This document shows positions 1 to 17,342 of a DNA stretch of 32,000 nucleotides, piece after piece. Source of the stretch: Sphingorhabdus sp. (GTDB lineage: Bacteria > Pseudomonadota > Alphaproteobacteria > Sphingomonadales > Sphingomonadaceae); the NCBI RefSeq assembly GCF_044239665.1, contig NZ_JBIIBA010000014.1, forward strand, positions 1 through 32,000, given 5' to 3'. Position 1 is the first letter of the stretch. Each line of letters starts with the position of its first letter. The position numbers and the translations under genes are program-made. The notes under the pieces were generated by a model. The model saw nothing but the letters and a program-made list of their open reading frames with translations. It had not been told where the DNA came from and did not search any database.

Positions 1-147
1 GAGCGCGGTGTACGTTTTGGTCGCAAGCCAACGACAGAAGCGCAGATAGCAAAAATTCAATGGATGAAGCGAAATGGCTCATCAATCCGCGCTATCTGTA
101 AAGAGGTGAAAGTCAGTCCGAATACGGTTTATGCGATGTTGCAATGA
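1..147 (+). CDS. Serine recombinase (resolvase/invertase family), C-terminal HTH fragment; 5' end lies outside the window
   Basis: Frame 1 reads ERGVRFGRKPTTEAQIAKIQWMKRNGSSIRAICKEVKVSPNTVYAMLQ*. The GRKP linker followed by a short helix-turn-helix tail is the typical C-terminus of Tn3/Hin-type resolvases. Confidence 0.6.
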   Translation, partial: ERGVRFGRKPTTEAQIAKIQWMKRNGSSIRAICKEVKVSPNTVYAMLQ

Positions 148-315
148 AACGGGATTCTGGATGGATATGTCTCAGACTATTTTCTGAGAATCATTCAGAT
201 TTAATCAGTCTCCTTGATTATGAGTTCTACGAACTCATGCGATTTCGGGTTTCTTCGTAACCCTCATCGCTTTGTTTTTTTATATTTGTTGGTTGGTACA
301 TTTCGTTAGATTGCT

Positions 316-349
316 GCCACAGTGAGGCTTACGCTTCACTGTGGCTTTT
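316..349 (+). terminator. Rho-independent terminator-like hairpin downstream of the recombinase gene
   Basis: gccacagtga (316-325) pairs with tcactgtggc (336-345) and is followed by ttttgcacttttcg. Confidence 0.5.
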
Positions 350-726
350 GCACTTTTCGTTGAGTCGTTTAAGCCAATGATTGCACACAACCACGCAGTT
401 CAAATGAACTGAATGGGAGATAGGGTTACGCTGTTACCTTTATGTGTGGTGAGTTGTTCGCAACGCAGCGTCTTGGGAACCAATCATTTACCCCTAAGAC
501 ACATACAAGTTACCGCTTTCGCAGTCTCATCTTTCTTGATCCATCGCATAATATTTTTACAAGCCAGTTGCGACTTTGCTTGTTGTATTGCGTGTCTGTG
601 GTCACGCTTACTGGGCTGCAAGTTCTGTTGGCGACAGCTAGGCTGGCAAACTCAATGCGACGATAATGCCCTATGATAGAACATAGAAACGTGAATAGGT
701 TACAGACACGTTCTTTCTGCTCCACA

Positions 727-777
727 GATAAATACTAGTCAGATTGCGCTTACATTCTGACGATATGAGTATTTATC
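727..777. promoter_or_regulatory. Inverted repeat GATAAATACT-N31-AGTATTTATC bracketing the region just upstream of gene A1 (putative operator)
   Basis: 10-bp arms at 727-736 and 768-777. An inner gtcaga/tctgac inverted repeat is also present. The same half-site recurs at 7709-7718, 7744-7753 and 4967-4976. Confidence 0.45.
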
Positions 778-794
778 ACGGAGTAAGGAAAACT

Positions 795-1100
795 ATGAAA
801 AAAGACACGATTTTAGAAGTTTTTGGGTATCTTAAATCTAAGCAGATTGTTTCTGGCGAGAGCGAATTTTCTGAGCATTGGCTTGGTTGTTCAGAAGGCT
901 ACATGCGTAAATTACGACATAAGAAAACAGAACCAAGTTTGGGCACAATCGCAATATGTGCGAGTAGATTACAGAACGCTGCTGAGCAGTTGAGAACATT
1001 GCCGCGCTATCAGCCATTGGCAAAACAGCTTACATCAATGAGTATCAAATGTCGTTCGTTGGTTGATGCAGACAGCGTCGAGTTTGATCTGAGTAATTAA
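795..1100 (+). CDS. Island backbone protein A1 (101 aa), putative XRE/Cro-like HTH regulator
   Basis: ATG at 795 is preceded by aaggaaa. The segment FSEHWLGCSEGYMRKLRHKKTEPSLGTIAICASRL fits the XRE-type HTH pattern (LGxSxxYxxxxxxGxxxPSLxxxxxxAxxL). The paralog at 7771-8076 is 82% identical (18/101 differences by hand count). Confidence 0.55.
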   Translation: MKKDTILEVFGYLKSKQIVSGESEFSEHWLGCSEGYMRKLRHKKTEPSLGTIAICASRLQNAAEQLRTLPRYQPLAKQLTSMSIKCRSLVDADSVEFDLSN

Positions 1101-1159
1101 AACCAACTTGGAAAAAGGTTCCTTTTGCTGCACGGTTTGGATCTGTCACATCAAGACGG

Positions 1160-1795
1160 TTGGGTTTCTCATTGCACAAGTCAGACGAAGCACGGTTGGC
1201 AAAGCTTCACGATTTATTGGATCGATTGAGGCGTGGCGAAATCGTGCAAAATCGTCAGCTTCAGACTTGGCTTGGTGAGCAAGGTTATAAGGAATACGAG
1301 GATAGTTGGTCGAACACATTAGATCAGCGCAACTTGCTTAGTAGAAAATCTGGCGCAGTTATCGAGTATGAGGAGCTGCTGAAGAAGGCAATACTGCTCT
1401 ACAATCGCGGTGAAACTGCAAGTCAGCGAGGAGTGCGATCAGCACGACAGCTACACGCAAAAGCACAAACGGCTTTCGAACGGGCACTGCTGTATCTTGA
1501 AGAGCAACTAAGCATCGATCCGTCGTTGCAAATCTGGCTCGACAGACAATGTGATTTCACTGCTAGTAACTACCCCAGTCTTGACCCATTTAGCGTTCCA
1601 CGAGCTATTACTAGTCGCAGCTTAGACAATCAGAGCGGTCCAATTTCAGAAAAGATTGATAGCAAAAGACAGTGCAAAATTCGTGCGGTGGAAGCGGTGA
1701 TTGAGCAAATTAAGTGTCCAGAAGAGCGTCTAACAAATGAAGACATAGCTGCGAAACTTCGAGCACTAACGGCAACGATGGGGAAAAGGGCGTGA
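1160..1795 (+). CDS. Hypothetical protein B (211 aa), predicted mostly helical, no recognisable domain
   Basis: Long open frame in roughly 45% GC DNA. The only possible start is TTG at 1160, since there is no in-frame ATG or GTG upstream and the in-frame stop is at 1094. Its stop overlaps the start of the next ORF. Confidence 0.5.
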   Translation: MGFSLHKSDEARLAKLHDLLDRLRRGEIVQNRQLQTWLGEQGYKEYEDSWSNTLDQRNLLSRKSGAVIEYEELLKKAILLYNRGETASQRGVRSARQLHAKAQTAFERALLYLEEQLSIDPSLQIWLDRQCDFTASNYPSLDPFSVPRAITSRSLDNQSGPISEKIDSKRQCKIRAVEAVIEQIKCPEERLTNEDIAAKLRALTATMGKRA

Positions 1796-2274
1796 CTAAA
1801 GAACGGGAAAAACTAGGAAATGATCTTGCAATAGCTATCGCTCAATCGTCTGGGATTGGTGACAATCTCTTATGCATAGCTGAACATGTCGTCACTGAAA
1901 TCGAGTATCGGCATGGTATCGATGACGATCTAGGAAACGTATATCACGACTTTAAGATAATTTCCGACGGTTTACTCATAAGAACGACAGATGGATACGA
2001 CTACAAAGATGCTGATGCATTTATCCAAAACCGCATAAAAAGCAGAGACGTAAAGGCATCCGCTTGTCTAAAAAATGGAAGAGAACTCCAGATAGAATTT
2101 CTACTTACGTTTCTTTTCGGCGCCCATCTCGTCGATGAAGTCGAGATATATGTATGTATCAACAACAGAGACATTAGAGGGAATGATGTTACGTTAAGTG
2201 GGGAAATATACAGCGAGGATGTTTCTGAATCTGACCTGAAAGGCGCGTTATTGTGGCTAACGCTTCAGCGTTGA
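1792..2274 (+). CDS. Hypothetical acidic protein C (160 aa), no recognisable domain
   Basis: GTG start at 1792 overlaps the TGA of ORF B (GTGA) and is preceded by ggggaaaaggg. There is no internal Met. The ORF ends 3 nt before the 693-bp repeat begins. Confidence 0.5.
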   Translation: MTKEREKLGNDLAIAIAQSSGIGDNLLCIAEHVVTEIEYRHGIDDDLGNVYHDFKIISDGLLIRTTDGYDYKDADAFIQNRIKSRDVKASACLKNGRELQIEFLLTFLFGAHLVDEVEIYVCINNRDIRGNDVTLSGEIYSEDVSESDLKGALLWLTLQR

Positions 2275-2276
2275 TT

Positions 2277-2969
2277 GGCTAGATTTCGGTAGGAATATCA
2301 AAGCGAAGGATTCACATTGAGTTCTCGAAAAAGGAGAATGCAATGTCGCTAATATCATCGCTGAAGCTGATCGAGTTTCGACCAGAAACAGCACAAGGGC
2401 GCATCTTCGTGCGTCGTCGCAAACTGGCAGATAAGATCGATCAGCAGATCAAGCTTGCTACAGACCCAGCGTATGCACCAAGCAAGTTTGTTACTGTCAC
2501 TGACGAAAGCGGCAATCAGCATCGTCGTGAAGTAGCAAAGCGCATCAAGCGATGGTGGGTCGTGAACGCTGACGATACAGTTCAACTAACAGTGCGTTAT
2601 GGCAGCAAACCAATTGAGCTTGCGAAGGGCAAGAACGCTATTCAATGCGCTAATGCTTCAGAGGTCAGCACGGTTCTTTCAACGGTAAAGGAAGCTGTTT
2701 TGAACGGCGAACTTGATACTGTTTTGAACAGCGTCACTGGCGTTAGTTCGAAAGCGAAATAATCACGAGAAAGGCACTGGAAAGAGACGATTTGCGTAAG
2801 TATGATGTTTACACATTGTGCATCTACGACACGAGATTTCAATTACATACCTAAGTGATTGATTTAATGGAATAAATCTTAAATCGCATTAGTTACACAA
2901 AAATAAAAATTGGAGCTAACTAATTGATTTATATATGTTTTATAGCAGTGAATCGTTGAGTGGGAGTAG
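2277..2969. repeat. Direct repeat copy 1 (693 bp; partner at 8208-8900)
   Basis: Hand alignment at a constant offset of 5931 bp gives no indels and about 26 mismatches. The last 28 bp (atagcagtgaatcgttgagtgggagtag) are identical. Confidence 0.9.
2343..2762 (+). CDS. Island backbone protein D1 (139 aa), conserved hypothetical
   Basis: ATG is preceded by aaaggaga. It has a near-identical paralog at 8274-8693 (4/139 aa differences). The basic central region KRIKRWW has no motif I can name with confidence. Confidence 0.7.
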   Translation: MSLISSLKLIEFRPETAQGRIFVRRRKLADKIDQQIKLATDPAYAPSKFVTVTDESGNQHRREVAKRIKRWWVVNADDTVQLTVRYGSKPIELAKGKNAIQCANASEVSTVLSTVKEAVLNGELDTVLNSVTGVSSKAK

Positions 2970-3153
2970 AATGCGTTACTAAGTAACTGATATTGTTTGT
3001 TTATTTAGTTACACAAAACATTCACGACGCACAAAAAATCGTTTGTTTCCAGTTCCAGCAAGCTTATTGTTGCACAGCTACTTACACATTCTTGTCACTA
3101 CTCTAAATCGTAGGCGACATTGCTGTTTGGGTGCGCTTGAGGGGAAATAGACA
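2763..3153. other. attP-like hybrid junction: AT-rich arms with repeated TTAGTTACACAAAA / TTACACA motifs around the repeat end at 2969
   Basis: The 14-mer TTAGTTACACAAAA sits at 2889-2902 and 3005-3018. TTACACA also occurs at 2809-2815 and 3082-3088, all in the same orientation. A perfect 13-bp palindrome, gttactaagtaac, lies at 2975-2987. The integrase gene starts at 3154. Confidence 0.45.
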
Positions 3154-4395
3154 ATGTCACATCGAGTTAAGGCTGATGACGGTCGTATCTGGCTGTTTGA
3201 TAAGGTGCTTATTGAGCAGCGAGGTGTTTACTGGCACTTCAGAATGTGGCTTGATGGTGAGAACAAATATGTTCGTGAGAGCTTAAAAACTCGCGATTTA
3301 GAGACAGCAAAAAAACGAGCAGAAGATCGTTACATCGAGCTTCGTTCAGATCAGAAGTCTGGCAAACGCTACTTCTCGATTACAGCAGAAGAAGGGGTGA
3401 ATCTCTATCTCGCTGACAAACAAAAGCTGGTCGAACTCAAGACAATCACAAAGGGGCGTCACGGCACAATATCGACGCATCTTGGTCACTGGCTGGACTA
3501 TATCAAGCGTGACACAAAGCTGAAGGAACTGGAGCGAAACGCTGCTGAAGGCTACTTCGCTTATCGTATCAAAAACGCAAAGCACGGCATCGCACATACA
3601 ACGCTTGCAAACGAGCAAGGCACTATCAACGCAATGATGGCGTATCTTTTTCGTGCAAAACAGAGTGTCGTCGAAGCGTTCGATTTCCCCAAGCTTAGTA
3701 AGTATGAAATCGACAACGAAGCAATTCGACGAGCTACGCTTACTAACGACGAGTATAATGCATTGACCAAAGCAATGCGTTCATATGTCGCTCGTAAGGC
3801 AAACAAGCTCGACGATGATGAACATATGATGCGTGAGTTGGCGAGGCACTATGTTTTGATTGCAGCAAATGCGGGGCTGAGAACGGGTGAGCAGCAGCAA
3901 CTTCGCTGGTGTGATGTGAAGATGAAAAAGCACGAGCTTGGCGCAGCGATGCAGACGAAGCTGCTTGCCGAAATCTATGTGCGCAAAGAGACGAGTAAGG
4001 TTCGTAAGGATCGTAAATTATACTGTCGTGGGGGTACTTACTTCGAACGCTGGAAAGAGCTTTCCAGGCATACGAGCAGCACTGATTTGATATTCAGTCT
4101 CGACGGCAAAACACGCATTTCGAATCGTGCAATTCTCTATCATTTCCATCGTATGGTGAAGCTTGCAGGCATTGTAGATCACGAAGCACGAGGTATCGTT
4201 CCATACAGCTTACGGCACTTTATGATCACGCAAAGGGTGCTGAGTGGTTTATCGTTTCAGCAAGTCGCAGAGATGTGTGGCACGAGCGACACTGAGATCA
4301 GAAAGACATACTATCACTTGATAGATGATCGTCGTTTGGCGAACGCTGTGGCTGACTTTAGGCGTGACAAAGATGGTCGAATAATTCCCATCTAA
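3154..4395 (+). CDS. int: Tyrosine recombinase / phage-type integrase (413 aa)
   Basis: RBS gagggg lies 9 nt upstream. Catalytic-domain landmarks are AGLRTGE (Arg I), YSLRHFMIT (box II Arg) and EIRKTYYH (Tyr region). The long N-terminal domain is typical of arm-binding integrases. Confidence 0.85.
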   Translation: MSHRVKADDGRIWLFDKVLIEQRGVYWHFRMWLDGENKYVRESLKTRDLETAKKRAEDRYIELRSDQKSGKRYFSITAEEGVNLYLADKQKLVELKTITKGRHGTISTHLGHWLDYIKRDTKLKELERNAAEGYFAYRIKNAKHGIAHTTLANEQGTINAMMAYLFRAKQSVVEAFDFPKLSKYEIDNEAIRRATLTNDEYNALTKAMRSYVARKANKLDDDEHMMRELARHYVLIAANAGLRTGEQQQLRWCDVKMKKHELGAAMQTKLLAEIYVRKETSKVRKDRKLYCRGGTYFERWKELSRHTSSTDLIFSLDGKTRISNRAILYHFHRMVKLAGIVDHEARGIVPYSLRHFMITQRVLSGLSFQQVAEMCGTSDTEIRKTYYHLIDDRRLANAVADFRRDKDGRIIPI

Positions 4396-4543
4396 CTTAA
4401 AACATTTAAGTTAGCTCCGCTCGAAGCTACGAAAGCGTTTCTGGATCAGGTACTTTTGGAGTGGCGGGGCATCTTCAGCAATGATAGCTCCACGCAAATC
4501 ATCACATTAACAGCAGCGCATCATTCGTAAGTTAGGAAGTCTA

Positions 4544-4933
4544 ATGTTCAAAGAAGCTACTTTAATTCTTGCTGCCATTAGTGCGCCTGCGCCTGTCTCG
4601 CCTGAGCTGACGGTCGCTGATGGTTGGCTTTCGTTGCTTGATGCTAACAGCTGGTCTGCAAGCTGGAATGATACTGGAAAACTGTTTCGTTCGCAGCTGA
4701 CGCAGGAGCAGTGGGTAAAAACAGTTCAATCAGTTAGGGAGCCTTTAGGCACAGTTGTGTCGCGGGTCGTGAACGGTTCGAGTAAATCGAAATCACTGCC
4801 TGGTGCGCCTGATGGAGAGTATGAGATTTTACAGTATCGTACAGTTTTTTCGAAAAAGGCTGACACGATTGAAACAGTCATTCTTGCTCGTGAAGACGAC
4901 AAATGGAAGATAGTCGGTTACTTCATCCGTTAG
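4544..4933 (+). CDS. DUF4019-like small exported protein (129 aa)
   Basis: RBS aggaag. The N-terminus is hydrophobic (LILAAISAPAP). The C-terminal LPGAPDGEYEILQYRTVF...WKIVGYFI matches my memory of the DUF4019 family pattern. Confidence 0.5.
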   Translation: MFKEATLILAAISAPAPVSPELTVADGWLSLLDANSWSASWNDTGKLFRSQLTQEQWVKTVQSVREPLGTVVSRVVNGSSKSKSLPGAPDGEYEILQYRTVFSKKADTIETVILAREDDKWKIVGYFIR

Positions 4934-4997
4934 ATTAGCAATCGAGTAAGCCTGCAGCTCCCGAGTGATAAATACACTTGAAAGCAGGGTGTATGGG

Positions 4998-5426
4998 ATG
5001 AACGCACGAGAAGAATTGAAACGCTGGATTGCTATGGTGATCGAGCTATCATCAGAAGAAGAAAGCAAGACGATCAAGCAGGACATTGACCTGTTTCTGT
5101 CAGTCGCAGGGGAGTTGTCAGGGAAATTGGCTGATAGAAACACTGCGCTTGCGAAACAGTGTCGCTCAAGCAGCAAATCAAAGCCACCGAAGCCTGCTCC
5201 TCAGAAAGCCCAGAAGCAACCTAAGCCAGAGCCAAGCACTGCTGATACCCCACAATCCCAAAACGATTCAGAGGACCGTTCACAGGAGCGATCAGGACAA
5301 TCGTCGCAGAAACAACAAGCACCGACATCTCCCACTCATCAGCAACGAGCATTGCGTGGGTATGTCTATGGGGCACAAAATGATGAGGTTGCATTTCGCA
5401 AAGCTGCGCAGGCTATAACACGATGA
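4998..5426 (+). CDS. Hypothetical protein with a helical N-terminus and a long Pro/Gln/Ser/Lys-rich low-complexity linker (142 aa from ATG 4998)
   Basis: The open frame spans 4965-5426. ATG at 4998 follows agggtg. The stop overlaps the next start (ATGA at 5423-5426). A GATAAATACA half-site lies at 4967-4976. Confidence 0.5.
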   Translation: MNAREELKRWIAMVIELSSEEESKTIKQDIDLFLSVAGELSGKLADRNTALAKQCRSSSKSKPPKPAPQKAQKQPKPEPSTADTPQSQNDSEDRSQERSGQSSQKQQAPTSPTHQQRALRGYVYGAQNDEVAFRKAAQAITR

Positions 5427-5767
5427 ACGACAGGCTTATCCAAAGCCAGAAGCGGCTGCACGACAGTCTGTTTGAACTTTACATTGATGGTGGGTTGGAA
5501 CTGTTTCAGGCTGGCACTCGTGGCTTAAAGCGTGAGTTAATTATAAGGCTTGAGACAAGCGCACTCACACCAGAGAAGGGTGAAATAATTCACTACTATG
5601 CAATCAATCGTTGGGATGAAAACGATGAGTTTGACGAGTGGGCAAAGCCGTCAATGGCTCTGTCAGCGGAAGCTGAGCGCATTTTAGGAGTGACGAATGA
5701 GCAGCTTGCTCATTGTCGTGCAAGTGATTATGCACTCGACGATTTTTTCCGTTTCCTGCAGTTCTGA
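5423..5767 (+). CDS. Truncated, degenerate DnaQ-like (DEDD) exonuclease N-terminal fragment (114 aa)
   Basis: LIIRLETSALTPEKGEIIHYYAI...AERILGVTNEQL...FFRFLQF follows the ExoI-region pattern (vlDxETTGLxPxxxxIIEigav...vHGITxexL...Fxxfl). The first acidic residue is Arg (RLE instead of DxE). The ORF stops before the ExoII and ExoIII motifs. Confidence 0.45.
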   Translation: MNDRLIQSQKRLHDSLFELYIDGGLELFQAGTRGLKRELIIRLETSALTPEKGEIIHYYAINRWDENDEFDEWAKPSMALSAEAERILGVTNEQLAHCRASDYALDDFFRFLQF

Positions 5768-5774
5768 GAAGATT

Positions 5775-6269
5775 GTGATCGTCACTGAGCGCCTCAAGTT
5801 ACGCCTGCCAAAACTCTCCGATTTGGAAGACATTCACGAAATATTCTGTGACGATGAGGTAATGACTTACTGGTCAAATGGAGCTCATCAAAGCATATCT
5901 GAAACAAGAACTTGGCTTACGCCACTTCTTGATTACAATCCTGAAAGCCAATTTGACTTTTTCATTGATTTTCAAGGAAAAATAGTTGGTAAACTTGGTT
6001 TCTGAAAATTACCAGAAGTCGGTTTTATTCTTAATAGATCTTATTGGGGAATAGGTATTGCTTCAGAGGCAATGAGAGGACTAATAAGTTATGTCAGAGA
6101 ATATAATATTTCTGATCATTTATTTGCTGATGTAGACCCACGCAATTTAAGATCCATCAATCTATTGAACAAGTTTGGTTTTGAAAATATTGGTTTTGAA
6201 AGACAGACATTTGAAACTCATATAGGCTGGTGCGATAGCATTTATTACAAGTTAGAGTTAAAAGACTGA
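5775..6269 (+). pseudogene. GNAT (RimJ/RimL-like) N-acetyltransferase interrupted by a single in-frame TGA at 6003-6005
   Basis: ORFs 5697-6005 and 6072-6269 share one frame. Read-through gives ...GKIVGKLGF*KLPEVGFILNRSYWGIGIASEAMRGL..., which includes the GNAT motif A (RxxGxG/A). TERLKLRLPKLSDLEDIHEIFCDDEV is a typical RimJ/L N-terminus. GTG at 5775 is a plausible start. The segment is about 35% GC by eye. Confidence 0.7.
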
Positions 6270-6286
6270 ATTGTTATTTGTGTTGT

Positions 6287-6853
6287 TCAAATCACATTAA
6301 CAGCATTTGCCAATTGCTCATCACTGACCCAGCAATATCCAGCAGTAGTAGCAATGTTAGCGTGACCCATAGCTTGCTGAATTGTCGCCATCCCAATGCC
6401 AGCAGCGTTTAAGCGTGTAGCAAATGTCCTTCTGCCTGAATGACTGCTCGTTTTGATACCAGCGGCTGCGTAGATTGCTTTGAAGCGCAAGCTGAGACTG
6501 ATGTTGCTAAAATGGTTGCCAGTCCGTGTTGAGCGAATGAATGCTTTGCTCTCATCAAGCTGGCTAATCTGAGCGAGATATTGATTTAGGATTTTGCGAA
6601 GTTCGTCTGAGATGAAAACCCTGCGTGAGCGATTGCCTTTCGTTTGATGTTTGCTGAGATTGATGACTTCTACTGCTCGTCTATCAATCCCGCGAACATC
6701 AGAAATCTTCAAAGCCGCAATCTCTCCAATGCGCATCCCAGCTAAGATACTAAGCGACAAAGCCGTTCTATCTCTGAGACCGTTATTCCCTGTGTCAGCG
6801 ATACGCATCACTCGTTTGATTTCGTCTTTAGTCAGAACCTTTGCTTTTGCCAT
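6287..6853 (-). CDS. Minimal tyrosine recombinase, catalytic domain only (188 aa from MAKAK), FimB/FimE-sized
   Basis: AGMRIGE (Arg I), SSHSGRRTFATRL (HxxR) and GHANIATTAGY (His/Tyr) are present. There is no N-terminal core-binding or arm domain. The start at 6853 is chosen over the ORF-track start at 6931. Confidence 0.8.
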   Translation of the reverse strand: MAKAKVLTKDEIKRVMRIADTGNNGLRDRTALSLSILAGMRIGEIAALKISDVRGIDRRAVEVINLSKHQTKGNRSRRVFISDELRKILNQYLAQISQLDESKAFIRSTRTGNHFSNISLSLRFKAIYAAAGIKTSSHSGRRTFATRLNAAGIGMATIQQAMGHANIATTAGYCWVSDEQLANAVNVI

Positions 6854-7093
6854 TTTGCTTGTCTCACATAAACTTTTCCGATGAGAGATTCTTAAATTAA
6901 TCAGACATTTGATCCTACCGATTTCCTCCATCAGTCGTTTTGTTGTTTCCCAATGACCTATGTCGTTTTCACAAACTTTTGATTCTTTGTTAATGTCTTT
7001 GCATTTTGGGTATTATGAAGACTTGCGCTGAAATCACTCAGCACATTGCCTTGTCCATAAGACGCACGACTTCACCGCAGCATAGCTGTCCTG

Positions 7094-7726
7094 TTAGTTC
7101 GAGTTGCGCCTAATGTATCGCTGCTCAGCCCTTGCAAGATGCTGATCGAATGCGATCGAGGCATCGTTAATGTGCTGGAAGCGATCTGCTGCTGATCGTA
7201 GGTCGATCAACGCAGTGTCACGCATCTTGGGTTGATACTGATCGAGATGCGTCAGCTTCGCATTGAAGCCGTTCATCTCACCATCGTGATCTTCGTGAAG
7301 CAGATACCAGGAAGCTCGTTGCTTGCTGAAAACGGGCAGTATCTCGTTCTGCTCAGCTACCGCTGCGCCCGCACCCTCCATACCAGCCCAGAGCGCATTA
7401 AGCAGAACGCAGAACTCTCCCGTGTCACCCAGAGATCGAGCAAGGAAGTGCGAATGTATGTTGTCCCCGTTCCTGCCGCTGTGCGTGTAAACAAAACGCT
7501 GAACTCGATTCTGCCTACCCTTTGACTGCCCGTAACAGATACGATCCAACTTGCTCCAGAAGTGCGACCATTGTCGCTGTGCTTCTTCAATCCCAATTTT
7601 GTGTCCAACAGCGAAGTTCAGTGTCCCATAAACATTCCAATCATACGACGAAGCCCACTTCGCCCAGTTCAGTCTCACTAACGATTTTGCGACCATTCTC
7701 ATTTCCCAGATAAATACAGTGAGCAA
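7094..7726 (-). CDS. Hypothetical protein with HUH-type rolling-circle Rep-like motif order (about 200-210 aa; start uncertain between 7726, 7702 and 7696)
   Basis: The motif order is YGTLNF (motif I-like), about 55 aa, NIHSHFLA (HxH, motif II-like), about 50 aa, then SWYLLHEDH (a possible Tyr motif). It is divergent from gene A2 across a palindromic region. Confidence 0.4.
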   Translation of the reverse strand: MLTVFIWEMRMVAKSLVRLNWAKWASSYDWNVYGTLNFAVGHKIGIEEAQRQWSHFWSKLDRICYGQSKGRQNRVQRFVYTHSGRNGDNIHSHFLARSLGDTGEFCVLLNALWAGMEGAGAAVAEQNEILPVFSKQRASWYLLHEDHDGEMNGFNAKLTHLDQYQPKMRDTALIDLRSAADRFQHINDASIAFDQHLARAEQRYIRRNSN

Positions 7727-7753
7727 GTCACTTGCTACTGATGTGTATTTATC
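7709..7753. promoter_or_regulatory. Inverted repeat GATAAATACA-N25-TGTATTTATC with a nested near-perfect palindrome, lying between the divergent Rep-like and A2 genes
   Basis: Arms lie at 7709-7718 and 7744-7753. The inner sequence cagtgagcaagt c acttgctactg has one mismatch. Confidence 0.45.
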
Positions 7754-7770
7754 ACTGGGAGATCGAAACG

Positions 7771-8076
7771 ATGAGAAAAGATATTATTTATGAAGTGCTT
7801 GGGTTTCTAAAAGACAAAGGAATTGCTGCGACTGAAAGCGAGTTCAGCGAACATTGGTTAGGTTGTTCGGAAGGGTATTTGCGTAAGCTGCGTCATCAAA
7901 AAACAGAACCAAGTCTGGGCACGATAGCAATTTGTGCCAGTCGATTAATGTGCGCCGCTGAGCAGTTGAAAACATTGCCGCGTTATCAGCCATTAGCAAA
8001 ACAGCTTACATCTATGAGTATCAGATGTCGTTCGTTGGTTGATGCTGACAGTGTTGAGTTCGATCTGGCTGGGTGA
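7771..8076 (+). CDS. Island backbone protein A2 (101 aa), paralog of A1, putative XRE/Cro-like HTH regulator
   Basis: ATG at 7771 follows gggaga. It shares 82% aa identity with A1, and the C-terminal 60 aa are nearly identical. Confidence 0.55.
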   Translation: MRKDIIYEVLGFLKDKGIAATESEFSEHWLGCSEGYLRKLRHQKTEPSLGTIAICASRLMCAAEQLKTLPRYQPLAKQLTSMSIRCRSLVDADSVEFDLAG

Positions 8077-8126
8077 GTTTTCTGTTTTAGGAAAGCGGAA
8101 CAGAAAGCTGAAATGACAAATGGTGC

Positions 8127-8174
8127 GCTGTCGGTTTTCCCGACAACGCATTGATTGTCGGGAAAACCGACAGC
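8127..8174. repeat. Perfect 20-bp stem / 8-nt loop hairpin in the empty A-D slot
   Basis: gctgtcggttttcccgacaa (8127-8146), loop cgcattga, then ttgtcgggaaaaccgacagc (8155-8174). A weaker 7-bp hairpin lies at 8080-8105. Confidence 0.9.
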
Positions 8175-8207
8175 TTACTTTAAACTTTAAAGCTTGAGTT
8201 TTTGCGA

Positions 8208-8900
8208 GGCTACATTTCGGTAGGAATATCAAAATGAAGGATTCACATTGAGTTCTCGAAAAAGGAGAATGCAATGTCGCTAATATCATCGCTGAAGCTG
8301 ATCGAGTTTCGACCAGAAACAGCACAAGGGCGCATCTTCGTGCGTCGTCGTAAACTGGCAGATAAGATCGATCAGCAGATCAAGCTTGCTACAGACCCAG
8401 CGTATGCACCAAGCAAGTTTGTTACTGTCACTGACGAAAGCGGCAATCAGCATCGTCGTGAGGTAGCGAAACGCATCAAGCGTTGGTGGGTCGTGAACGC
8501 TGACGATACAGTGCAACTAACAGTGCGTTATGGCAGCAAACCAATCGAGCTTGCGAAGGGCAAGAACGCTATTCAATGCACTAATGCGTCAGAGGTCAGC
8601 ACGGTTCTTTCAACGGTCAAGGAAGCTGTTTTGAACGGCGAACTTGATACTGCTTTGAGCAGTGTCACTGGCGTTGGTTCGAAAGCGAAATAATCACGAG
8701 AAAGGCACTGGAAAGAGACGGTTTGCGCAAGTATGATGTTTACACATTGTGCATCTACGACACGAGATTTCAATTACATACATAAGTAATTGATTTATTG
8801 GAATAAATCTTAAATCGCATTAGTTACACAAAACTAAAAATTGGAGTTAACTAATTGATTTATATATATTTCATAGCAGTGAATCGTTGAGTGGGAGTAG
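8208..8900. repeat. Direct repeat copy 2 (693 bp; partner at 2277-2969). Its right end coincides with the island/chromosome boundary
   Basis: Same alignment as copy 1. The sequence after 8900 (gcgttcacccgcaatgacc...) is GC-rich chromosome. Confidence 0.9.
8274..8693 (+). CDS. Island backbone protein D2 (139 aa), paralog of D1
   Basis: 97% aa identity to D1, with the same RBS and context. Confidence 0.7.
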   Translation: MSLISSLKLIEFRPETAQGRIFVRRRKLADKIDQQIKLATDPAYAPSKFVTVTDESGNQHRREVAKRIKRWWVVNADDTVQLTVRYGSKPIELAKGKNAIQCTNASEVSTVLSTVKEAVLNGELDTALSSVTGVGSKAK

Positions 8901-8913
8901 GCGTTCACCCGCA

Positions 8914-9123
8914 ATGACCGCCGCGCTATCGCCTGCGCAGATTAGCGAGATCGTCGAAATGGCGCTGTCGGATCATATCAGCTTCACGCAGATTTCGGCG
9001 CAGCACGGGGTCACGCCTGACGAGATTAAAGTCATCATGCGCACCCAGTTAAAGCCCGGAAGCTATCGCGCATGGCGCAAGCGTGTGCGCGATTTCGGCG
9101 ACCGGCGGGCGCATTATAAATGA
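8914..9123 (+). CDS. DUF2805 (TIGR03643-like) family small protein (69 aa)
   Basis: MTAALSPAQISEIVEMALSDHISFTQI...YRAWRKRV matches my memory of this family. The ORF-track start at 8887 (TTG) lies inside island DNA, so ATG 8914 is preferred. Confidence 0.6.
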   Translation: MTAALSPAQISEIVEMALSDHISFTQISAQHGVTPDEIKVIMRTQLKPGSYRAWRKRVRDFGDRRAHYK

Positions 9124-9151
9124 TATTCATGGCAGATAACGGACCCAGCAT

Positions 9152-9505
9152 ATGACCCTAACTCTCTACGGCATTCCCAATTGCGACACCGTCAAAAAAG
9201 CGCGGAAATATTTGGATGCGCGCGGCGTCAGCTTTGCCTTTCATGATTATAAAAAGGCAGGGGTGACGCAAGAACATCTGGCGCGCTGGGCCAGCCAAGT
9301 CGGCTGGGAAAAGCTGCTGAACAAGGCGGGCACGACGTTTAAGAAGCTGCCCGATGCGGATAAGGCCGACATAGATGCGACCAAGGCGATTGCGTTGATG
9401 GTTGCCAACCCGTCCATGATCAAACGGCCAGTGGTTGAAGGCGGCAAGGCTTTGCTCGTCGGGTTTAAGGAATCCGAATGGGATGCGCTTTTGTCGCAGA
9501 ATTGA
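9152..9505 (+). CDS. ArsC/Spx-family protein (YffB-like)
   Basis: LYGIPNCDTVKKARKYL at the N-terminus and SMIKRPVV near the C-terminus; 117 aa. Confidence 0.8.
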   Translation: MTLTLYGIPNCDTVKKARKYLDARGVSFAFHDYKKAGVTQEHLARWASQVGWEKLLNKAGTTFKKLPDADKADIDATKAIALMVANPSMIKRPVVEGGKALLVGFKESEWDALLSQN

Positions 9506-9530
9506 AATGTCGCGCAGGCATGACAGCAGG

Positions 9531-10598
9531 ATGAAATTCTTACATATCCTCTTGATCGCCACCCTGTCATTGTCGCCCTTCTCCATTTCGGAAAGCCACG
9601 CCATGGAACAACCGCTTGAAGGCAAAGTCATCGTCATCGCCCATCGCGGCGCATCGGGCGAGCGGCCCGAGCATACGTTGGCAAGCTACCGCCTCGCGAT
9701 TGAACAAGGCGCCGATTATATTGAGCCGGACTTGGTGCTCACCAAGGATGGCGTTCTGGTCGCGCGGCATGAGAATGAGATTTCGGAAACCACTAACGTC
9801 GCGGACAAGGCCGAATTTGCCGACCGCAAGATGACCAAGGTCATCGATGGCCAGAAAATGACAGGCTGGTTTACCGAAGACTTCGCCCTCGCCGAATTGA
9901 AGACCCTGCGCGCGAAAGAACGCCTACCGCAATTGCGCAAGGCAAATATGGCCTATGACGGGCAGTTTGAGATACCGACCTTTGACGAGATCCTCGCTTT
10001 GGCCAAAGAGGCAAGCAAGACGACGGGTCGGACGATAGGCGTCTATCCCGAAACCAAGCACCCAAGCTATTTCACCGCGATTGGTCTGCCGCATGAAGCG
10101 CCGTTGCTGGCCGCGCTGACCAAATATGGTCATGTCGACAAAAGCGCGCCGGTGTTCATCCAATCGTTCGAGGTCGAAAATCTGAAAGCCTTGCGGTCCA
10201 AAACGAAATTGCGCCTGATCCAGTTGATGGCGGACACAGGCAGCCCGCCCGACCGCAGCGATTTGACCTATGCCGCAATGGCAACGGCAGAGGGCCTAAA
10301 GGCCGTGGCGAGCTATGCCGATGGCATTGGCCCCAATAAGGCACTCATCATCCCGCGTACTTTGCTGGGCAATCTGGGCGATCCGACGACCCTTGTCGCG
10401 GACGCACATAAACTGGGTCTTGCGGTTCACCCGTGGACGTTTCGCCGCGAAAATTACTTCCTGCCCCTCGCGCAAAAATCCGGCGTTGATCCGCGTGGGA
10501 CAGGTGACTTGAACGCAGAGATAAAAGCCTTCTTGGCTACCGGCGTCGACGGCATTTTCAGCGACAATGTGACCGAAGCGGTGGCGGCGCGCCAATAA
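9531..10598 (+). CDS. glpQ: Periplasmic glycerophosphodiester phosphodiesterase
   Basis: Signal peptide MKFLHILLIATLSLSPFSISESHA. VIAHRGASGERPEHTL...YIEPDLVLTKDGVLVARHENE is the GDPD signature. An alternative start lies at 9507. Confidence 0.8.
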   Translation: MKFLHILLIATLSLSPFSISESHAMEQPLEGKVIVIAHRGASGERPEHTLASYRLAIEQGADYIEPDLVLTKDGVLVARHENEISETTNVADKAEFADRKMTKVIDGQKMTGWFTEDFALAELKTLRAKERLPQLRKANMAYDGQFEIPTFDEILALAKEASKTTGRTIGVYPETKHPSYFTAIGLPHEAPLLAALTKYGHVDKSAPVFIQSFEVENLKALRSKTKLRLIQLMADTGSPPDRSDLTYAAMATAEGLKAVASYADGIGPNKALIIPRTLLGNLGDPTTLVADAHKLGLAVHPWTFRRENYFLPLAQKSGVDPRGTGDLNAEIKAFLATGVDGIFSDNVTEAVAARQ

Positions 10599-10653
10599 GA
10601 CGAAGACTCTATTTGCTTTTGCCCGCGGCGATTAGCGGCTAAGCCCCTGCGCT

Positions 10654-11520
10654 ATGTCTACACATTCAAAAACGCTCACTTTCGATACATCCACCAGTCG
10701 CGCGAACCCGACGCCTTCGCCGATGAAGCGGCTGACCGTGCCGCGCATTCGGCAGCAAAAGGGTAAGGAACCGCTGGTGATGCTGACGGCCTATACCGTC
10801 CGCATGGCGCAGTTGATGGACCCGCATTGCGACATGCTGCTCGTCGGTGATTCGCTGGGGCAAGTGATTTACGGCCTGCCGCACACCGTGGCGGTGACGA
10901 TGGAAATGATGGCGGCGCATGGCGCGGCGGTGGTGCGCGGCAGCTATCACGCCGCCGTCATCGTCGATATGCCCTTTGGCTCCTATGAAGCATCGCCCGA
11001 ACAAGCATTTGTCAACGCATCGCGACTGTTGAAAGAGACCGGCGCGGCGGCGGTGAAGCTGGAAGGCGGCAAGGTGCTCGCGCCCACGGTGGAGTTCCTG
11101 ACCTCACGCGGCATTCCGGTGATGGCGCATGTCGGATTAACGCCGCAGGCGGTGAACATTCTGGGCGGCTATGGCGTGCGCGGCAAAAGCCCAGAAGAAG
11201 CCAAGTCGATCGTCGATGATGCGATGTCCATGTCCGACGCCGGGGCATTTGCCATGGTGATTGAAGGCGTACTTGAACATATCGCCATTGAAATTACGCA
11301 AAAAGTTGCCTGCCCAACCATTGGCATTGGCGCGTCGGCGCAATGCGACGGGCAAGTGTTGGTTGCCGAAGACATGCTGGGCTTGTTCGACCGCGTTCCC
11401 AAATTCGTCAAGAAATTCGGTGATATGGGTGTCGGCGTTGAGGACGCTGTGCGCGCTTATGCCGCTGGCGTGCGTGACCGCAGCTTCCCCGGACCCGACC
11501 AGCTATATCAGCCTGTATAA
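10654..11520 (+). CDS. panB: 3-methyl-2-oxobutanoate hydroxymethyltransferase
   Basis: LVMLTAYT...MLLVGDSLG...VDMPFGSY...AVKLEGG are canonical PanB motifs. Confidence 0.9.
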   Translation: MSTHSKTLTFDTSTSRANPTPSPMKRLTVPRIRQQKGKEPLVMLTAYTVRMAQLMDPHCDMLLVGDSLGQVIYGLPHTVAVTMEMMAAHGAAVVRGSYHAAVIVDMPFGSYEASPEQAFVNASRLLKETGAAAVKLEGGKVLAPTVEFLTSRGIPVMAHVGLTPQAVNILGGYGVRGKSPEEAKSIVDDAMSMSDAGAFAMVIEGVLEHIAIEITQKVACPTIGIGASAQCDGQVLVAEDMLGLFDRVPKFVKKFGDMGVGVEDAVRAYAAGVRDRSFPGPDQLYQPV

Positions 11521-11597
11521 AGCAGGCTGGCCTATCGGGCCAAGTCGGGCTAAGGACCGTGTTGACCAATTTTGACTAAACAAATTCGGAGGCCCTT

Positions 11598-12362
11598 TTG
11601 GCTTTGACACCGACTGAAAAGCCCGCGGATAAAGACCGGAGCGGTAGCGACGAGGCATTTTTGCGTGAGGTCGATGATGCCGTCCGCGCGAGTGACCTGA
11701 GCAGTTTTTGGACGCGTTATGGCCGCTGGCTTTTGGCGGCTGTGGTGGCCGGACTTTTGGCCTTTGCTGGCTGGATCATCTATCACAATCAAATGCAGGC
11801 CGCAGCAGATTTGCAAAGCGAAGAATTTGTCGACGCAATGGACAAGTTGCGCGCTGGGCAAGAAAAAGAGGCGCGCGCCAAATTGGCAGTGCTCGCCAAG
11901 GCCGATCAACCCGGATATCGCGCCATGGCGCAATTGGTGGAGGCAAATCTGCTCGGTGAAGATGGTGAGACCAAGAAGGCGATTGCTATCTATGCCAAGG
12001 TTGCAGGCGACGACAGCCTGCCACAGACATTCCGCGATCTGGCCCTGATCCGCCAAGTGAGCGCCGAGTTTGACGCCATCGCGCCGCAGCAAGTGATTGA
12101 CCGATTGAAACCACTGGCGACCGCTGGCCACCCTTATTTCGGCAGCGCGGGCGAATTAACCGCCTTAGCCTATATGAAAATGGGTAAGGACAATTTGGCT
12201 GGCCCTATTTTTGCGCAGATCGCGAAACAAGAGGACGCGCCGCAGACCTTGCGCAGCCGTGCCCAGCAAATGGCAGGTGCGCTTGGTATCGATACCGTTC
12301 AGCTTGACGTAACCCGCAATGCGGCAGCGAAGGCTGGCGATAGCGCCGCCAAAGGAGAGTGA
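11598..12362 (+). CDS. Membrane-anchored TPR-like protein (YfgM-like)
   Basis: TTG start, a single TM segment (WLLAAVVAGLLAFAGWIIY) and a helical repeat body. It sits in the conserved position upstream of bamB-der. Confidence 0.6.
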   Translation: MALTPTEKPADKDRSGSDEAFLREVDDAVRASDLSSFWTRYGRWLLAAVVAGLLAFAGWIIYHNQMQAAADLQSEEFVDAMDKLRAGQEKEARAKLAVLAKADQPGYRAMAQLVEANLLGEDGETKKAIAIYAKVAGDDSLPQTFRDLALIRQVSAEFDAIAPQQVIDRLKPLATAGHPYFGSAGELTALAYMKMGKDNLAGPIFAQIAKQEDAPQTLRSRAQQMAGALGIDTVQLDVTRNAAAKAGDSAAKGE

Positions 12363-13708
12363 CTTTGAAGACCATATCCAAATTGCTTCTGGCACTCGCC
12401 GTGACAACGTCGCTTGGTGGCTGCGCCGTCATTGACGGGGTGCGCGGTGATTCCGGTAAGAAGAATAACACGCCGACCGTCGGCGCACGCGTCAGCATTT
12501 TGGGCACAGAGCGTGATACCGAGGTCGATGCGTCCTTGGCCGATGTCGCCGTCACCCTGCCGCCAGCATTGGCGAATGAAGCATGGGCACAGCCCGGCGG
12601 CAATGCCGCGAAATCGCCCGGTCATGCGGCGCTTGGTCAAAATCTGAAACGCATTTGGACCGCAGATGTGACCGGTGCCAACCCACGTGCACGCTTGGCC
12701 GCGAGCCCAGTGATGAGCGATGGCCGCGTCTATGTCGTCGACACCACCGCGCGCGTTACGGCATTTGATGCGAACACCGGCGCACAAATCTGGACAAACG
12801 CGCTTGAGGTTGACAGCGACGGCAAGCCTTCGCGTTATGGCGGCGGCGTCAGCGCAACCAGCAGCAATGTTTTTGCGACCAATGGCGTCGGCGATGTCGC
12901 CGCGCTTGTGGCGGAAACTGGCGCGCTTGTGTGGAAAAAGCGTCCAGCCGGACCCTTGCGTGGTGCGCCGACATTGTCCAACGGTAACCTATATGTGATG
13001 ACGCAGGACAACCAGATTTACGCGCTGCGCCAAAGCGATGGTGAGCCCCAATGGAAAGAGGCCGGGCCAGTTGCGGCATCGGGCATATTTGGCGTTGGCG
13101 CCCCTGCTGCGGCACAAGGCACCGTCATCGCTGGCTATTCCAGTGGTGAGCTTGCCGCCTATCGGTATGAAAATGGCCGCAGCCTGTGGAACGACACCTT
13201 GTCGCGTACCGCAATGTCGACATCGGTTTCGACGCTGACCGATATTGATGCCGACCCTGTCATCGACCGTGGCCGCGTCTTCGCTTTGGGTAAAGGCGGA
13301 CGCATGGCGTCCTATGAACTGGTCACTGGCCAGCGCATTTGGGAAATCAACATTGCGGGTATTTCGACACCCGTGACGGCAGGTGAATGGGTGTTCGTCA
13401 TGACCGACGAAGCCCGTTTATTGAGCGTTGCCCGTTCCAGCGGGAAAATCCGTTGGATTTCGAAGCTGCAGCGTTACGACAATGCAAAGAAGAAAAAGGG
13501 CCCGATTAGCTGGTATGGCCCTATTCTTGCCGGCGGTCGCTTGATCATTGCCAATTCGCGCGGTTCCATCTGGGCGGTTGCGCCAGAAGATGGCACAGCC
13601 ACTGAAGTTGCCGACGTAAAATCTGATGTGTCGCTTGCGCCGATTGTCGCGAACAACATCTTATATATTCTGGATGATTCCGGCCGCATTTCCGCGTTCC
13701 GCGGCTAG
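12359..13708 (+). CDS. bamB: Outer membrane protein assembly factor BamB (PQQ-like beta-propeller lipoprotein)
   Basis: Lipobox LGGC, repeated beta-propeller-like blades, and synteny with der. Confidence 0.8.
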   Translation: MTLKTISKLLLALAVTTSLGGCAVIDGVRGDSGKKNNTPTVGARVSILGTERDTEVDASLADVAVTLPPALANEAWAQPGGNAAKSPGHAALGQNLKRIWTADVTGANPRARLAASPVMSDGRVYVVDTTARVTAFDANTGAQIWTNALEVDSDGKPSRYGGGVSATSSNVFATNGVGDVAALVAETGALVWKKRPAGPLRGAPTLSNGNLYVMTQDNQIYALRQSDGEPQWKEAGPVAASGIFGVGAPAAAQGTVIAGYSSGELAAYRYENGRSLWNDTLSRTAMSTSVSTLTDIDADPVIDRGRVFALGKGGRMASYELVTGQRIWEINIAGISTPVTAGEWVFVMTDEARLLSVARSSGKIRWISKLQRYDNAKKKKGPISWYGPILAGGRLIIANSRGSIWAVAPEDGTATEVADVKSDVSLAPIVANNILYILDDSGRISAFRG

Positions 13709-13731
13709 GCCATAAAAGGAGAAGTAGCGGC

Positions 13732-15135: not shown

Positions 15136-15179
15136 GGATTGCGGCTAAGGATGGCGGCTAAGGATTGCCCAGCGCAATA

Positions 15180-15665
15180 TCAGTCCTCAATGGGTTTTGA
15201 CTGCAGCTGGATGTAATTTTCTATCCCCATGCGCGCAATCAAGTCGAACTGTTTTTCCAGCATATCGACATGCTCTTCTTCGCTTTCCAATATGGATGCG
15301 AATAGGTCGCGGCTGACATAATCGCGGACGCTTTCGCTATGCGCAATTGCATCCTTCAGCAGCGGCAGCGCTTCATATTCGAGCTCAAGATCGGCTTTCA
15401 GGATTTCCTCAACTGTCTCGCCAATACGCAGACGACCAAGCAATTGGAAATTGGGTAGGCCATCCAGAAACAAGATACGCTCCGACAATTTGTCGGCATG
15501 CTTCATCTCGTCAATCGATTCATGCCGTTCAAAATGTGCCAAGCGCGACACGCCCCAATTGTCCAGCATGCGATAATGCAGCCAATATTGATTGACCGCA
15601 GTCAGTTCATTTTTGAGCGCCTCGTTCAAAAATTCGATGACTTTTGCATCACCCTTCATCGCCAT
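15180..15665 (-). CDS. bfr: Bacterioferritin
   Basis: [31 protein letters not shown] is the canonical Bfr N-terminus; 161 aa. Confidence 0.95.
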
Positions 15666-15760
15666 GTCCTTTAGGTTAGTTGCGCATATACTAGCGCGTT
15701 AATGCATGACCGTGAAGGCGAAAAAATGGCGGAAAAGCTGATTTTTTCAACCCGCTATTG

Positions 15761-15931
15761 CTAAGCGGTTGCAGGTCCGGTGCTGATAATGTTTCGCGCG
15801 AACGACAGGCATTGGCCGCATTTTGGCTTACGCCCAAGGCGCGCATATACGTCATTCGGACGTTCCGAGGCACAACGCACCGCAGCGCGCAGGTCTTTTT
15901 CCTTGATAGCATTACAGATGCAAACGACCAT
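15761..15931 (-). CDS. bfd: Bacterioferritin-associated ferredoxin (BFD-like 2Fe-2S protein), 56 aa; absent from the supplied ORF track
   Basis: Hand translation gives MVVCICNAIKEKDLRAAVRCGSERPNDVYARLGRKPKCGQCLSFARNIISTGPATA*. It has the CxC...CxxC cysteine pattern and sits directly upstream of bfr. Confidence 0.75.
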   Translation of the reverse strand: MVVCICNAIKEKDLRAAVRCASERPNDVYARLGRKPKCGQCLSFARNIISTGPATA

Positions 15932-15985
15932 GGATCAACTCCTATGGAATCGCCTTACCGTTAATGCGAACTGATTGCAATAGCA

Positions 15986-17215: not shown

Positions 17216-17342
17216 GCCTTACCCCCTGTGTTACGACATTAATACAGCGATCCTGCATAAGCGTCCAGTGCGTTTAACTTTTCTTATTGACACTGATGTA
17301 GGTAGTTTTTACCTATATCCCATCATTTTTGGTGGATTCGTT

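Follow-up and report, generated by a model that had tools for sequence, protein, structure and literature searches.

Positions 1-8900 of the DNA under study, a stretch of 32,000 nucleotides of Sphingorhabdus sp. (assembly GCF_044239665.1, contig NZ_JBIIBA010000014.1, positions 1 to 32,000 of the forward strand; hereafter the window), are very probably the right-hand portion of an array in which two related integrative elements, both specific for guaA, lie in tandem. Element 1 is represented in the window by its right-hand 2969 bp, and element 2 (2970-8900, 5931 bp), which has its own pair of attachment (att) sites at 2958 and 8889, is, judging from its junctions, a complete unit. The docking site is made up of the last codons of the GMP synthase gene, guaA, to the left of where the window begins. 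This reading is carried by direct observations, namely the junction sequences themselves, an empty site, sites occupied by a single element, transfer between hosts and tandems in relatives.

Each element has at its right end a DUF6641 gene, a P arm of ~195 bp and the final guaA codons in copy (...GAGTGGGAGTAG). In the mechanism that we propose, a tyrosine integrase would exchange strands within GAGTGGGA, recombining attP (P-core-P') with a chromosomal site that bears the core. One element would already have been resident, and the second would have recombined with one of the two att sites of the resident and not with a naked attB, yielding the order guaA-core-P'(1)...P(1)-core-P'(2)...P(2)-core-DUF2805. 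From such an array three excision products would be possible, these being element 1, element 2 and both together.

An earlier note on this DNA, made from the sequence alone, had proposed a stack of two related integrative elements at a single att site, and the junctions, the empty site and the single-element loci described below agree with this proposal. The note drew on a direct repeat of 693 bp (2277-2969 versus 8208-8900), and its figures turned out to be exact on recomputation: the offset is constant at 5931 bp, the alignment is ungapped with 26 mismatches (96.25% identity) and, as the last mismatch falls at position 2941, the terminal 28 bp are identical. In a self-comparison of the window, identity falls off at once beyond either end of this block, and the module ends exactly at the core. 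Within the repeat, identity amounts to 95.5% in the 66 bp upstream of the open reading frame (ORF), 96.7% in the DUF6641 ORF, 95.4% in the P arm (195 bp) and 100% in the 12-bp core, and the two copies of the DUF6641 ORF, which encodes 139 amino acids (aa), have 14 differences, of which 10 are synonymous and 4 non-synonymous. The repeat is the homologous right-end module of both elements and not a target duplication; the argument of the note, that an identity of ~96% instead of 100% speaks against a duplication made by the insertion itself, is sound. A weaker second repeat (765-1091 versus 7741-8067, 79% identity) has a different offset and spans the two DUF6626 genes. In element 1 about 1.1 kb of additional genes separate DUF6626 from DUF6641, and the sequence from DUF6626 to the repeat is wholly different between the two units. 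The GC content is 0.435 in 1-2969, 0.451 in 2970-8900 and 0.566 in 8901-32000, copy 2 thus ending at the compositional break to which the note had pointed, and scans of the window for tRNA, tmRNA and Rfam families gave zero matches, in agreement with its view that no tRNA is involved.

Target site, junctions and alleles

The core corresponds to the end of guaA, GAG TGG GAG TAG, which encodes E-W-E-stop, and guaA keeps its ...IEWE-stop ending at attL. All four junction types, attB, attL, attR and internal, were recovered and share GAGTGGGAGTAG. The empty site attB, in contig L006, reads GACGATC / GAGTGGGAGTAG / GCGTTCACCC, the restored attB sequence being GACGATCGAGTGGGAGTAGGCGTTCACC. In contig L001, which carries a single element, attL reads GACGATC / GAGTGGGAGTAG / AATGCGTTAC (longer right flank AATGCGTTACTAAG) and attR reads GAATCGTT / GAGTGGGAGTAG / GCGTTCACCC (longer left flank GTGAATCGTT). 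The window junction at 2958 reads GAATCGTT / GAGTGGGAGTAG / AATGCGTTAC, with GTGAATCGTT and AATGCGTTACTAAG as its longer flanks. Since it combines an attR-type left flank with an attL-type right flank, it corresponds to the internal P-core-P' junction between a left and a right unit, and the alignment of attB, attL and attR supports the assignment made in the earlier note, with a hybrid P(1)-core-P'(2) site inside the array and P(2)-core-B' at its right end. This internal site occupies 2958-2969 on the plus strand, comprises the 12-bp identity GAGTGGGAGTAG and would have its crossover within GAGTGGGA (2958-2965). The note had placed the att site correctly and had left its target gene unnamed; this gene is guaA, targeted at its 3' end and located outside the window on the left.

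The position of the crossover can be narrowed down from variation between hosts. In a second host attL reads GAGTGGGAGTAG and attR reads GAGTGGGAATAA, that is, the ending of the host's own gene has been pushed to attR, so that strand exchange would have taken place to the left of the ninth base, inside GAGTGGGA. The same pattern was found in 13 loci of the wider family, from alpha-, beta- and gammaproteobacteria, where attL is GAGTGGGA followed by GTAG and attR, located ~220 bp past DUF6641, is GAGTGGGA followed by a host-specific ending (ATAA, GTAA, ATAG or GTGA), which places the crossover inside the 8-bp GAGTGGGA family-wide. The predicted crossover is in this way mapped to 8 bp by natural variation alone. 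A 14-nucleotide motif, TTAGTTACACAAAA, is a candidate arm-type binding site for the integrase: it has exactly 3 matches in the 32 kb (2889-2902, 3005-3018 and 8820-8833, all on the plus strand), where 0.09 would be expected, and all of them lie within att arms.

Related contigs, including metagenome contigs, were found by exact-protein look-ups. Contigs L001/L009 (86.7 kb) and L003 derive from the same host as the window and contain element 2 only, from guaA to DUF2805. Over window positions 2958-14000, L001/L009 differs at 9 positions in 11,043 bp (99.92% identity), and its single element has exactly the boundaries 2970-8900 and follows directly after guaA. The earlier note had suggested a search for an unoccupied site upstream of the DUF2805 gene, and L006 provides it: there the guaA stop codon lies 13 bp ahead of DUF2805, its left flank matches the guaA end of L001 at 100% over 742 bp, and its right flank agrees with the window at 99.87% from position 8889 on. 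These empty and single-occupancy alleles contradict the possibility, also considered in the note, that 1-8900 is syntenic core in close relatives. Element 2 alone is in fact the common allele of this host in several samples, and no same-host contig among those retrieved shows element 1 alone.

The second host carries element 2 at the same site. Four of its contigs (L008 and L010-L012) cover the whole element, and three shorter ones (L013, L015 and L016) cover the left junction. Element 2 is 99.83% identical between the two hosts (10 differences in 5930 bp), whereas identity is 87.5% between their guaA genes and 79-89% between their flanks; this disparity between element and guaA indicates recent horizontal transfer. 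At the 26 sites that are diagnostic for copy 1 versus copy 2 of the repeat, most single-element contigs are of type 2 throughout. Two right-end blocks are recombinant: in L010:12744-13436 the first 13 sites are of type 2 and the last 13 of type 1, and in L012:6305-6997 the corresponding numbers are 22 and 4. Blocks with type 2 on the left and type 1 on the right are what would be expected if a circle of element 2 had been freed by homologous recombination from an array with the order seen in the window. The hybrid order could also be obtained from the reverse array and, either way, both types have met in one cell.

The differences between the window and L001 are unevenly spread, 8 of the 9 falling in a patch of 20 bp (2985-3004) in the P' arm. 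Both variants of this patch are present in both hosts, suggesting patchy exchange among related elements.

Assembly, duplication and order of arrival

Several points weigh against a tandem array of two elements. As element 1 continues past the left edge and guaA lies outside as well, the window does not show the whole array. The P(1)-core-P'(2) junction, searched for both as an exact and as a degenerate pattern, had 0 matches in two scans of JGI metagenome contigs and 0 in IMG/VR, so that the tandem state of this pair rests on one assembly, and in the same junction scans no excised circle of element 2 was seen. Also, the integrase was assigned by homology and position only, and a 200-aa protein of element 2 was assigned as an HUH endonuclease from motifs and weak fold matches only (E >= 0.03).

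The fact that the tandem junction occurs in no other public contig scanned fits an assembly chimera, in which the different guaA/DUF2805 elements of two strains had been joined through their shared right-end module or core; in addition, element-1-like units occupy the site alone in related hosts (L021 and L024), and the contig of 1944 bp that carries element 1 genes in assembly GCA_041447055.1 ends ~100 bp into the repeat. However, a join of P(1)-core-B' to B-core-P'(2) would share just 12 bases, far fewer than assembler k-mer sizes, and the two copies of the repeat retain their 26 distinct differences, being neither collapsed nor identical. The window contains no N (count 0) and no gap, its junction is base-exact for site-specific recombination, and the same topology is found in a chromosome-level relative (L034). 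We thus regard a chimera as highly improbable. Hardly any more credit is due to a single composite element whose right-end module was duplicated by unequal crossing-over or replication slippage, and we consider it, if anything, even less probable. A long direct repeat with related DUF6626 genes ahead of its two copies would fit such a duplication, but in two hosts 2970-8900 stands alone between an attL and an attR of its own, and the repeat stops exactly at the core. What comes after copy 1 is the P' arm that is next to guaA where a single element is present. Moreover, the copies are 3.8% diverged with mostly synonymous changes, and nothing is shared between the units in the interval from DUF6626 to the repeat.

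A distinct scenario leaves the topology of two stacked elements as it is and changes its history: element 1 would have entered attL of a resident element 2, or a pre-formed tandem would have been acquired or retained and element 1 mostly lost. The earlier note had element 2 inserting into attR of a resident relative, and of this the topology stands, the history being only one of two that give the same product. As attP(2) x attR(1) and attP(1) x attL(2) result in identical arrangements, the topology is symmetric and neither event is dated by the window. The frequency of element 2 alone in the same host (99.9% identity, several samples), together with the lack of same-host contigs with element 1 alone, speaks for the alternative history, and so does the order of types in L010 and L012, which fits a circle released from an array with a type-1 unit on the left. 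Against it, attR x attB recombination predominated in a plasmid assay of the genomic island GIsul2 (PMC9376610), and the P' patch 2985-3004 of the window differs from that of the same-host single copies, so that the resident was not simply the L001 allele. On balance, we give the alternative history nearly an even chance. If anything, the common state of element 2 alone leans towards entry of element 1 into attL of element 2.

Gene content of the two elements

Element 2 begins with its P' arm (2970-3153, plus strand), which holds one copy of the arm motif (3005-3018) and the polymorphic patch 2985-3004. A tyrosine integrase of 413 aa, Int413, follows at 3154-4395 on the plus strand, 184 bp after copy 1 of the repeat as the earlier note had reported, and matches Phage_integrase (Pfam PF00589, E 1.6e-11) and phrog_1 (E 2.5e-22). 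Only its catalytic domain is recognisable with Pfam, PHROGs and NCBIfam. An integrase of this type adjoins guaA in all single-element loci and relatives, and Int413 is the probable catalyst of strand exchange.

The accessory or cargo region, read on the plus strand, contains a DUF4019 gene (4544-4933), a 153-aa ORF (4965-5426) and a 114-aa ORF (5423-5767) that weakly resembles DEDDh/DnaQ exonucleases in their N-terminal portion (E 1.8e-4 with NCBIfam and 3e-6 with DEDDh of PADLOC), this last ORF being kept at the same short length beside the integrase in relatives such as L084. A GNAT acetyltransferase is divided between two ORFs (5697-6005, 102 aa, and 6072-6269, 65 aa). The gene calls at 4544-6269 are identical in all related contigs and, given that the split is present in every copy of element 2 from two hosts, a disrupted cargo gene has been carried unchanged.

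Two genes on the minus strand come next. The one at 6287-6931 encodes a short tyrosine recombinase (188-214 aa) that consists of the catalytic domain only (Pfam Phage_integrase, E 1.8e-32); its Xer-like and invertase-like NCBIfam matches are below cut-off, and its position is kept in relatives. The other, at 7094-7696, encodes a 200-aa protein that is a candidate HUH (Rep-type) endonuclease from its motifs and a fold search. The motifs GTLNF, HxHF and Y...HE occur in this order and are invariant in 19 homologues. With an AlphaFold2 (AF2) model of this protein (predicted local distance difference test score, pLDDT, 82), Foldseek against the PDB gave matches that are all weak (E 0.03-0.4; best probability 0.93) and that include the HUH Rep nucleases SIRV1 ORF119, geminivirus Rep, and parvovirus NS1 and Rep, and a profile of the protein had no match among PDB sequences. 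It is probably an HUH endonuclease, which would serve rolling-circle replication or mobilisation of the excised circle. Searches of the window proteins with Pfam and NCBIfam gave no match to a MOB or type IV secretion system (T4SS) family, this HUH-like protein being the only mobilisation candidate.

The right part of element 2 lies on the plus strand and holds a DUF6626 gene (7741-8076; Pfam PF20331, E 1.5e-20) and repeat copy 2 (8208-8900), the right-end module, with DUF6641 at 8274-8693, the P arm at 8694-8888 and the attR core at 8889-8900. Directly past DUF6626 and 33 bp ahead of the repeat we noted a plus-strand hairpin (8127-8174) with a perfect 20-bp stem and an 8-nucleotide loop (dG -25.4 kcal/mol, z -8), conserved in L019, which could be a terminator or an origin for the candidate HUH Rep. 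DUF6641 itself had no sequence match in the PDB and no credible fold match, its AF2 model reaching a pLDDT of only 74; it was absent from 50,697 phage records and from plasmid records, had one distant match in IMG/VR, and a literature search turned up no mention of it. For DUF6626, too, the PDB, phage, plasmid, PADLOC and literature searches gave no lead. The PADLOC search gave no defence-system match for the backbone proteins, and PHROGs matches in the window are limited to integrase families and two families of unknown function. A prophage or phage satellite was rejected as a candidate, given that PHROGs returned no structural or packaging matches and that DUF6641 is absent from the phage records.

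On the B' side the first host gene is DUF2805 (8914-9123, plus strand), identified with Pfam and by syntenic gene calls, and housekeeping genes follow (ArsC-family protein, GDPD, panB, yfgM-like and bamB). The host region, with 55-60% GC, has local dips (0.47-0.51) at 15001-16000 and 17001-17500, near ferritin and DUF418 genes in syntenic contigs.

Element 1, on the plus strand throughout, opens in the window with the C-terminal helix-turn-helix of a serine recombinase (resolvase) at 1-147 (Pfam HTH_7, E 1.4e-7), the gene being cut by the left edge. Its DUF6626 gene occupies 744-1100, with a likely start at 795 (101 aa; Pfam PF20331, E 7e-22), and has 79% nucleotide identity to the copy in element 2. 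Two genes that are absent from element 2 follow, encoding 211 aa (1160-1795) and 160 aa (1792-2274); neither protein has a match in Pfam, PHROGs, NCBIfam or PADLOC, and homologues of the 211-aa protein (p211) sit ahead of DUF6641 in many relatives. Repeat copy 1 (2277-2969) is the right-end module, with DUF6641 at 2343-2762, the P arm at 2763-2957 and the core at 2958-2969.

Exact look-ups of element 1 proteins matched only contigs of up to 2 kb, the left end not being recovered, and the DUF6641 protein of copy 1 had nothing on record in an exact look-up. In the short-read assembly GCA_041447055.1 the element 1 genes on the 1944-bp contig correspond to window positions ~437-2380. More distant relatives are informative: window positions 1-134 have 94% nucleotide identity to the resolvase gene of contig NCGG01000021 (L084), from a Sphingomonadales metagenome-assembled genome (MAG), and positions 278-868 are 90% identical to a Sphingomonadales MAG (L024 plus L084). 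L024 and L084 together make up a unit of ~17 kb, from guaA to DUF2805, whose integrase is 56% identical to Int413 and whose gene order is integrase, p148, p114, a Type ISP restriction-modification enzyme of 1601 aa, resolvase, DUF6626 and DUF6641. From these similarities, it is a plausible model for element 1. The Type ISP enzyme, at L084:12920-17725, is cargo by which this family moves defence genes.

A family of guaA elements and its counterparts

For the wider family we scanned genomes with a DUF6641 profile, obtaining 63 loci onto which the window proteins were mapped by tblastn. A recurrent order emerged, with guaA followed by an integrase of the 413-aa type, accessory or cargo genes, the short tyrosine recombinase and the 200-aa protein (both on the minus strand), DUF6626, often p211, and DUF6641, the right end being found ~220 bp beyond the latter. 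Among the hosts are Sphingomonadales, Rhodobacterales, Hyphomicrobiales, Halomonas, Marinomonas, Cellvibrionaceae, Legionellales and Methylophilaceae; in one Sphingorhabdus MAG (L028) the guaA protein is 98% identical to that of the host of the window, which assigns the window to Sphingomonadales. The two elements are members of a widespread, little-studied and apparently unnamed family in aquatic Proteobacteria.

Stacking is found elsewhere in this family. In the Marinomonas MAG chromosome OZ245329 (L034:1-20411) the cores at 3928 and 10641 are each followed by a P'-like arm and an integrase, forming two P-core-P' junctions. Host sequence comes after the third core, at 18336, which makes it P-core-B' and gives at least three tandem units. 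The p211-DUF6641-P-arm modules of this array have an offset of 6713 bp and 77-89% identity. In its middle unit the integrase alignment is broken into two pieces, perhaps by a frameshift. A 6970-bp scaffold of the isolate Novosphingobium acidiphilum DSM 19966 (L022) is a circular permutation that contains P-core-P': it runs from just upstream of the integrase gene to DUF6641, the P arm, the core and 74 bp of P', with ~60 bp missing and no terminal overlap. Such a permutation points to either a homotandem or an extrachromosomal circle in this cultured strain. Units without an integrase, extending from guaA to a P arm and GAGTGGGA, occur at L032:6700-10650, L054:6520-10650 and L058:5420-10650; all three keep DUF6641, L032 and L054 have a p211 homologue, and their other ORFs encode 402-612 aa. 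From their gene content they look like decayed, cis-mobilizable remnants. L058 had also been considered as a tandem and was dropped, there being no integrase after its second core.

Tandem accretion is known from other systems, the SXT/R391 arrays being a further case. For integrative and conjugative elements (ICEs), integrative and mobilizable elements (IMEs) and cis-mobilizable elements (CIMEs) it is well documented, with ICESt1/ICESt3-CIME and SGI1 arrays as examples, and tandems with a decayed partner unit that has no integrase have been described (PMC5704250). The elements under study resemble these in the insertion of att into att, in the hybrid internal site (attL-element-attI-element-attR) and in having units that are related and not identical, and integrase-less units (L032, L054 and L058) and recombinant hybrids (L010 and L012) occur here too. 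They differ in that no conjugation or recognised mobilisation genes are found in them and in the very small size of the unit (5.9 kb). IMEs at the 3' end of guaA include ATE-1 of Trueperella pyogenes and the IncP island of Brucella suis (PMC5704250), which, compared by the listing in that review alone, share with our elements a tyrosine integrase and the end of the same target gene.

The closest parallel in target is GIsul2, which inserts at the 3' end of guaA and whose core, 5'-GAGTGGGA-3', was shown by experiment (PMC9376610, citing Harmer et al. 2017). Within GIsul2 a third att site (attLR) lies between two units that can excise separately, among them the CR2-sul2 unit, so that three excision circles arise, and further units have accreted at attR of a related guaA island (PMC9376610). 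The guaA 3' end, the same GAGTGGGA core, an integrase gene beside guaA and the stacked architecture are common to both. However, Int413 and the GIsul2 integrase (from pAB3) have no BLASTP similarity (E 1.4), and the latter has Arm-DNA-bind_3 and Phage_int_M domains (P4-type), neither of which is found by Pfam in Int413. The GIsul2 backbone genes alpA, repA/repC and trbJKL, as well as ars, ISCR2 and sul2 (pAB3 gene list), have no match among the Pfam and NCBIfam hits of the window, and the resolvase fragment of the window does not align with GIsul2 resG; a short tyrosine recombinase, a candidate HUH protein, DUF6626 and DUF6641 are found here instead. The hosts also differ, being aquatic Sphingomonadales and other environmental Proteobacteria in our case, whereas the GIsul2 site is known from clinical bacteria. 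A tblastn search with Int413 against 72,556 PLSDB plasmids gave one match below 1e-5 and no match of GIsul2 type. Membership in the GIsul2 family was considered for the shared target and core and is rejected, as Int413 has no meaningful similarity to the GIsul2 integrase or to plasmids; integrase homology and the backbone are both lacking.

Tandem accretion as a phenomenon and guaA as an integration target are already known. What is new is the assignment of this array to the guaA target with a crossover of 8 bp, the recovery of independent alleles (empty, single and cross-host), the evidence for a widespread unnamed family and, from sequence comparison, an integrase that appears unrelated to the known GAGTGGGA-specific integrase. 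The locus provides a natural example of tandem accretion for which empty, single-occupancy, tandem and cross-host alleles are all documented. For annotation, the interval between guaA and its downstream gene is worth checking for stacked islands that are fragmented in short-read assemblies. In environmental Proteobacteria an integrase lineage unrelated in sequence also makes use of the guaA stop-codon region, which is known from clinical bacteria as the docking site of GIsul2, and a conserved backbone (DUF6626, DUF6641, the short tyrosine recombinase and the candidate HUH protein) is flagged as moving cargo among freshwater and marine bacteria. Taken jointly, and as a tentative proposal to which we give somewhat less than even odds, the elements would represent an undescribed and very widespread family of integrative elements of ~4-17 kb, whose integrase would have converged on GAGTGGGA in the universally conserved EWE-stop of guaA, whose HUH protein would act in replication or mobilisation after excision, and whose members would swap cargo by tandem docking and recombination between DUF6641/P-arm modules. 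If this is true, the cargo swapped by that route would include a Type ISP restriction enzyme and acyltransferases.

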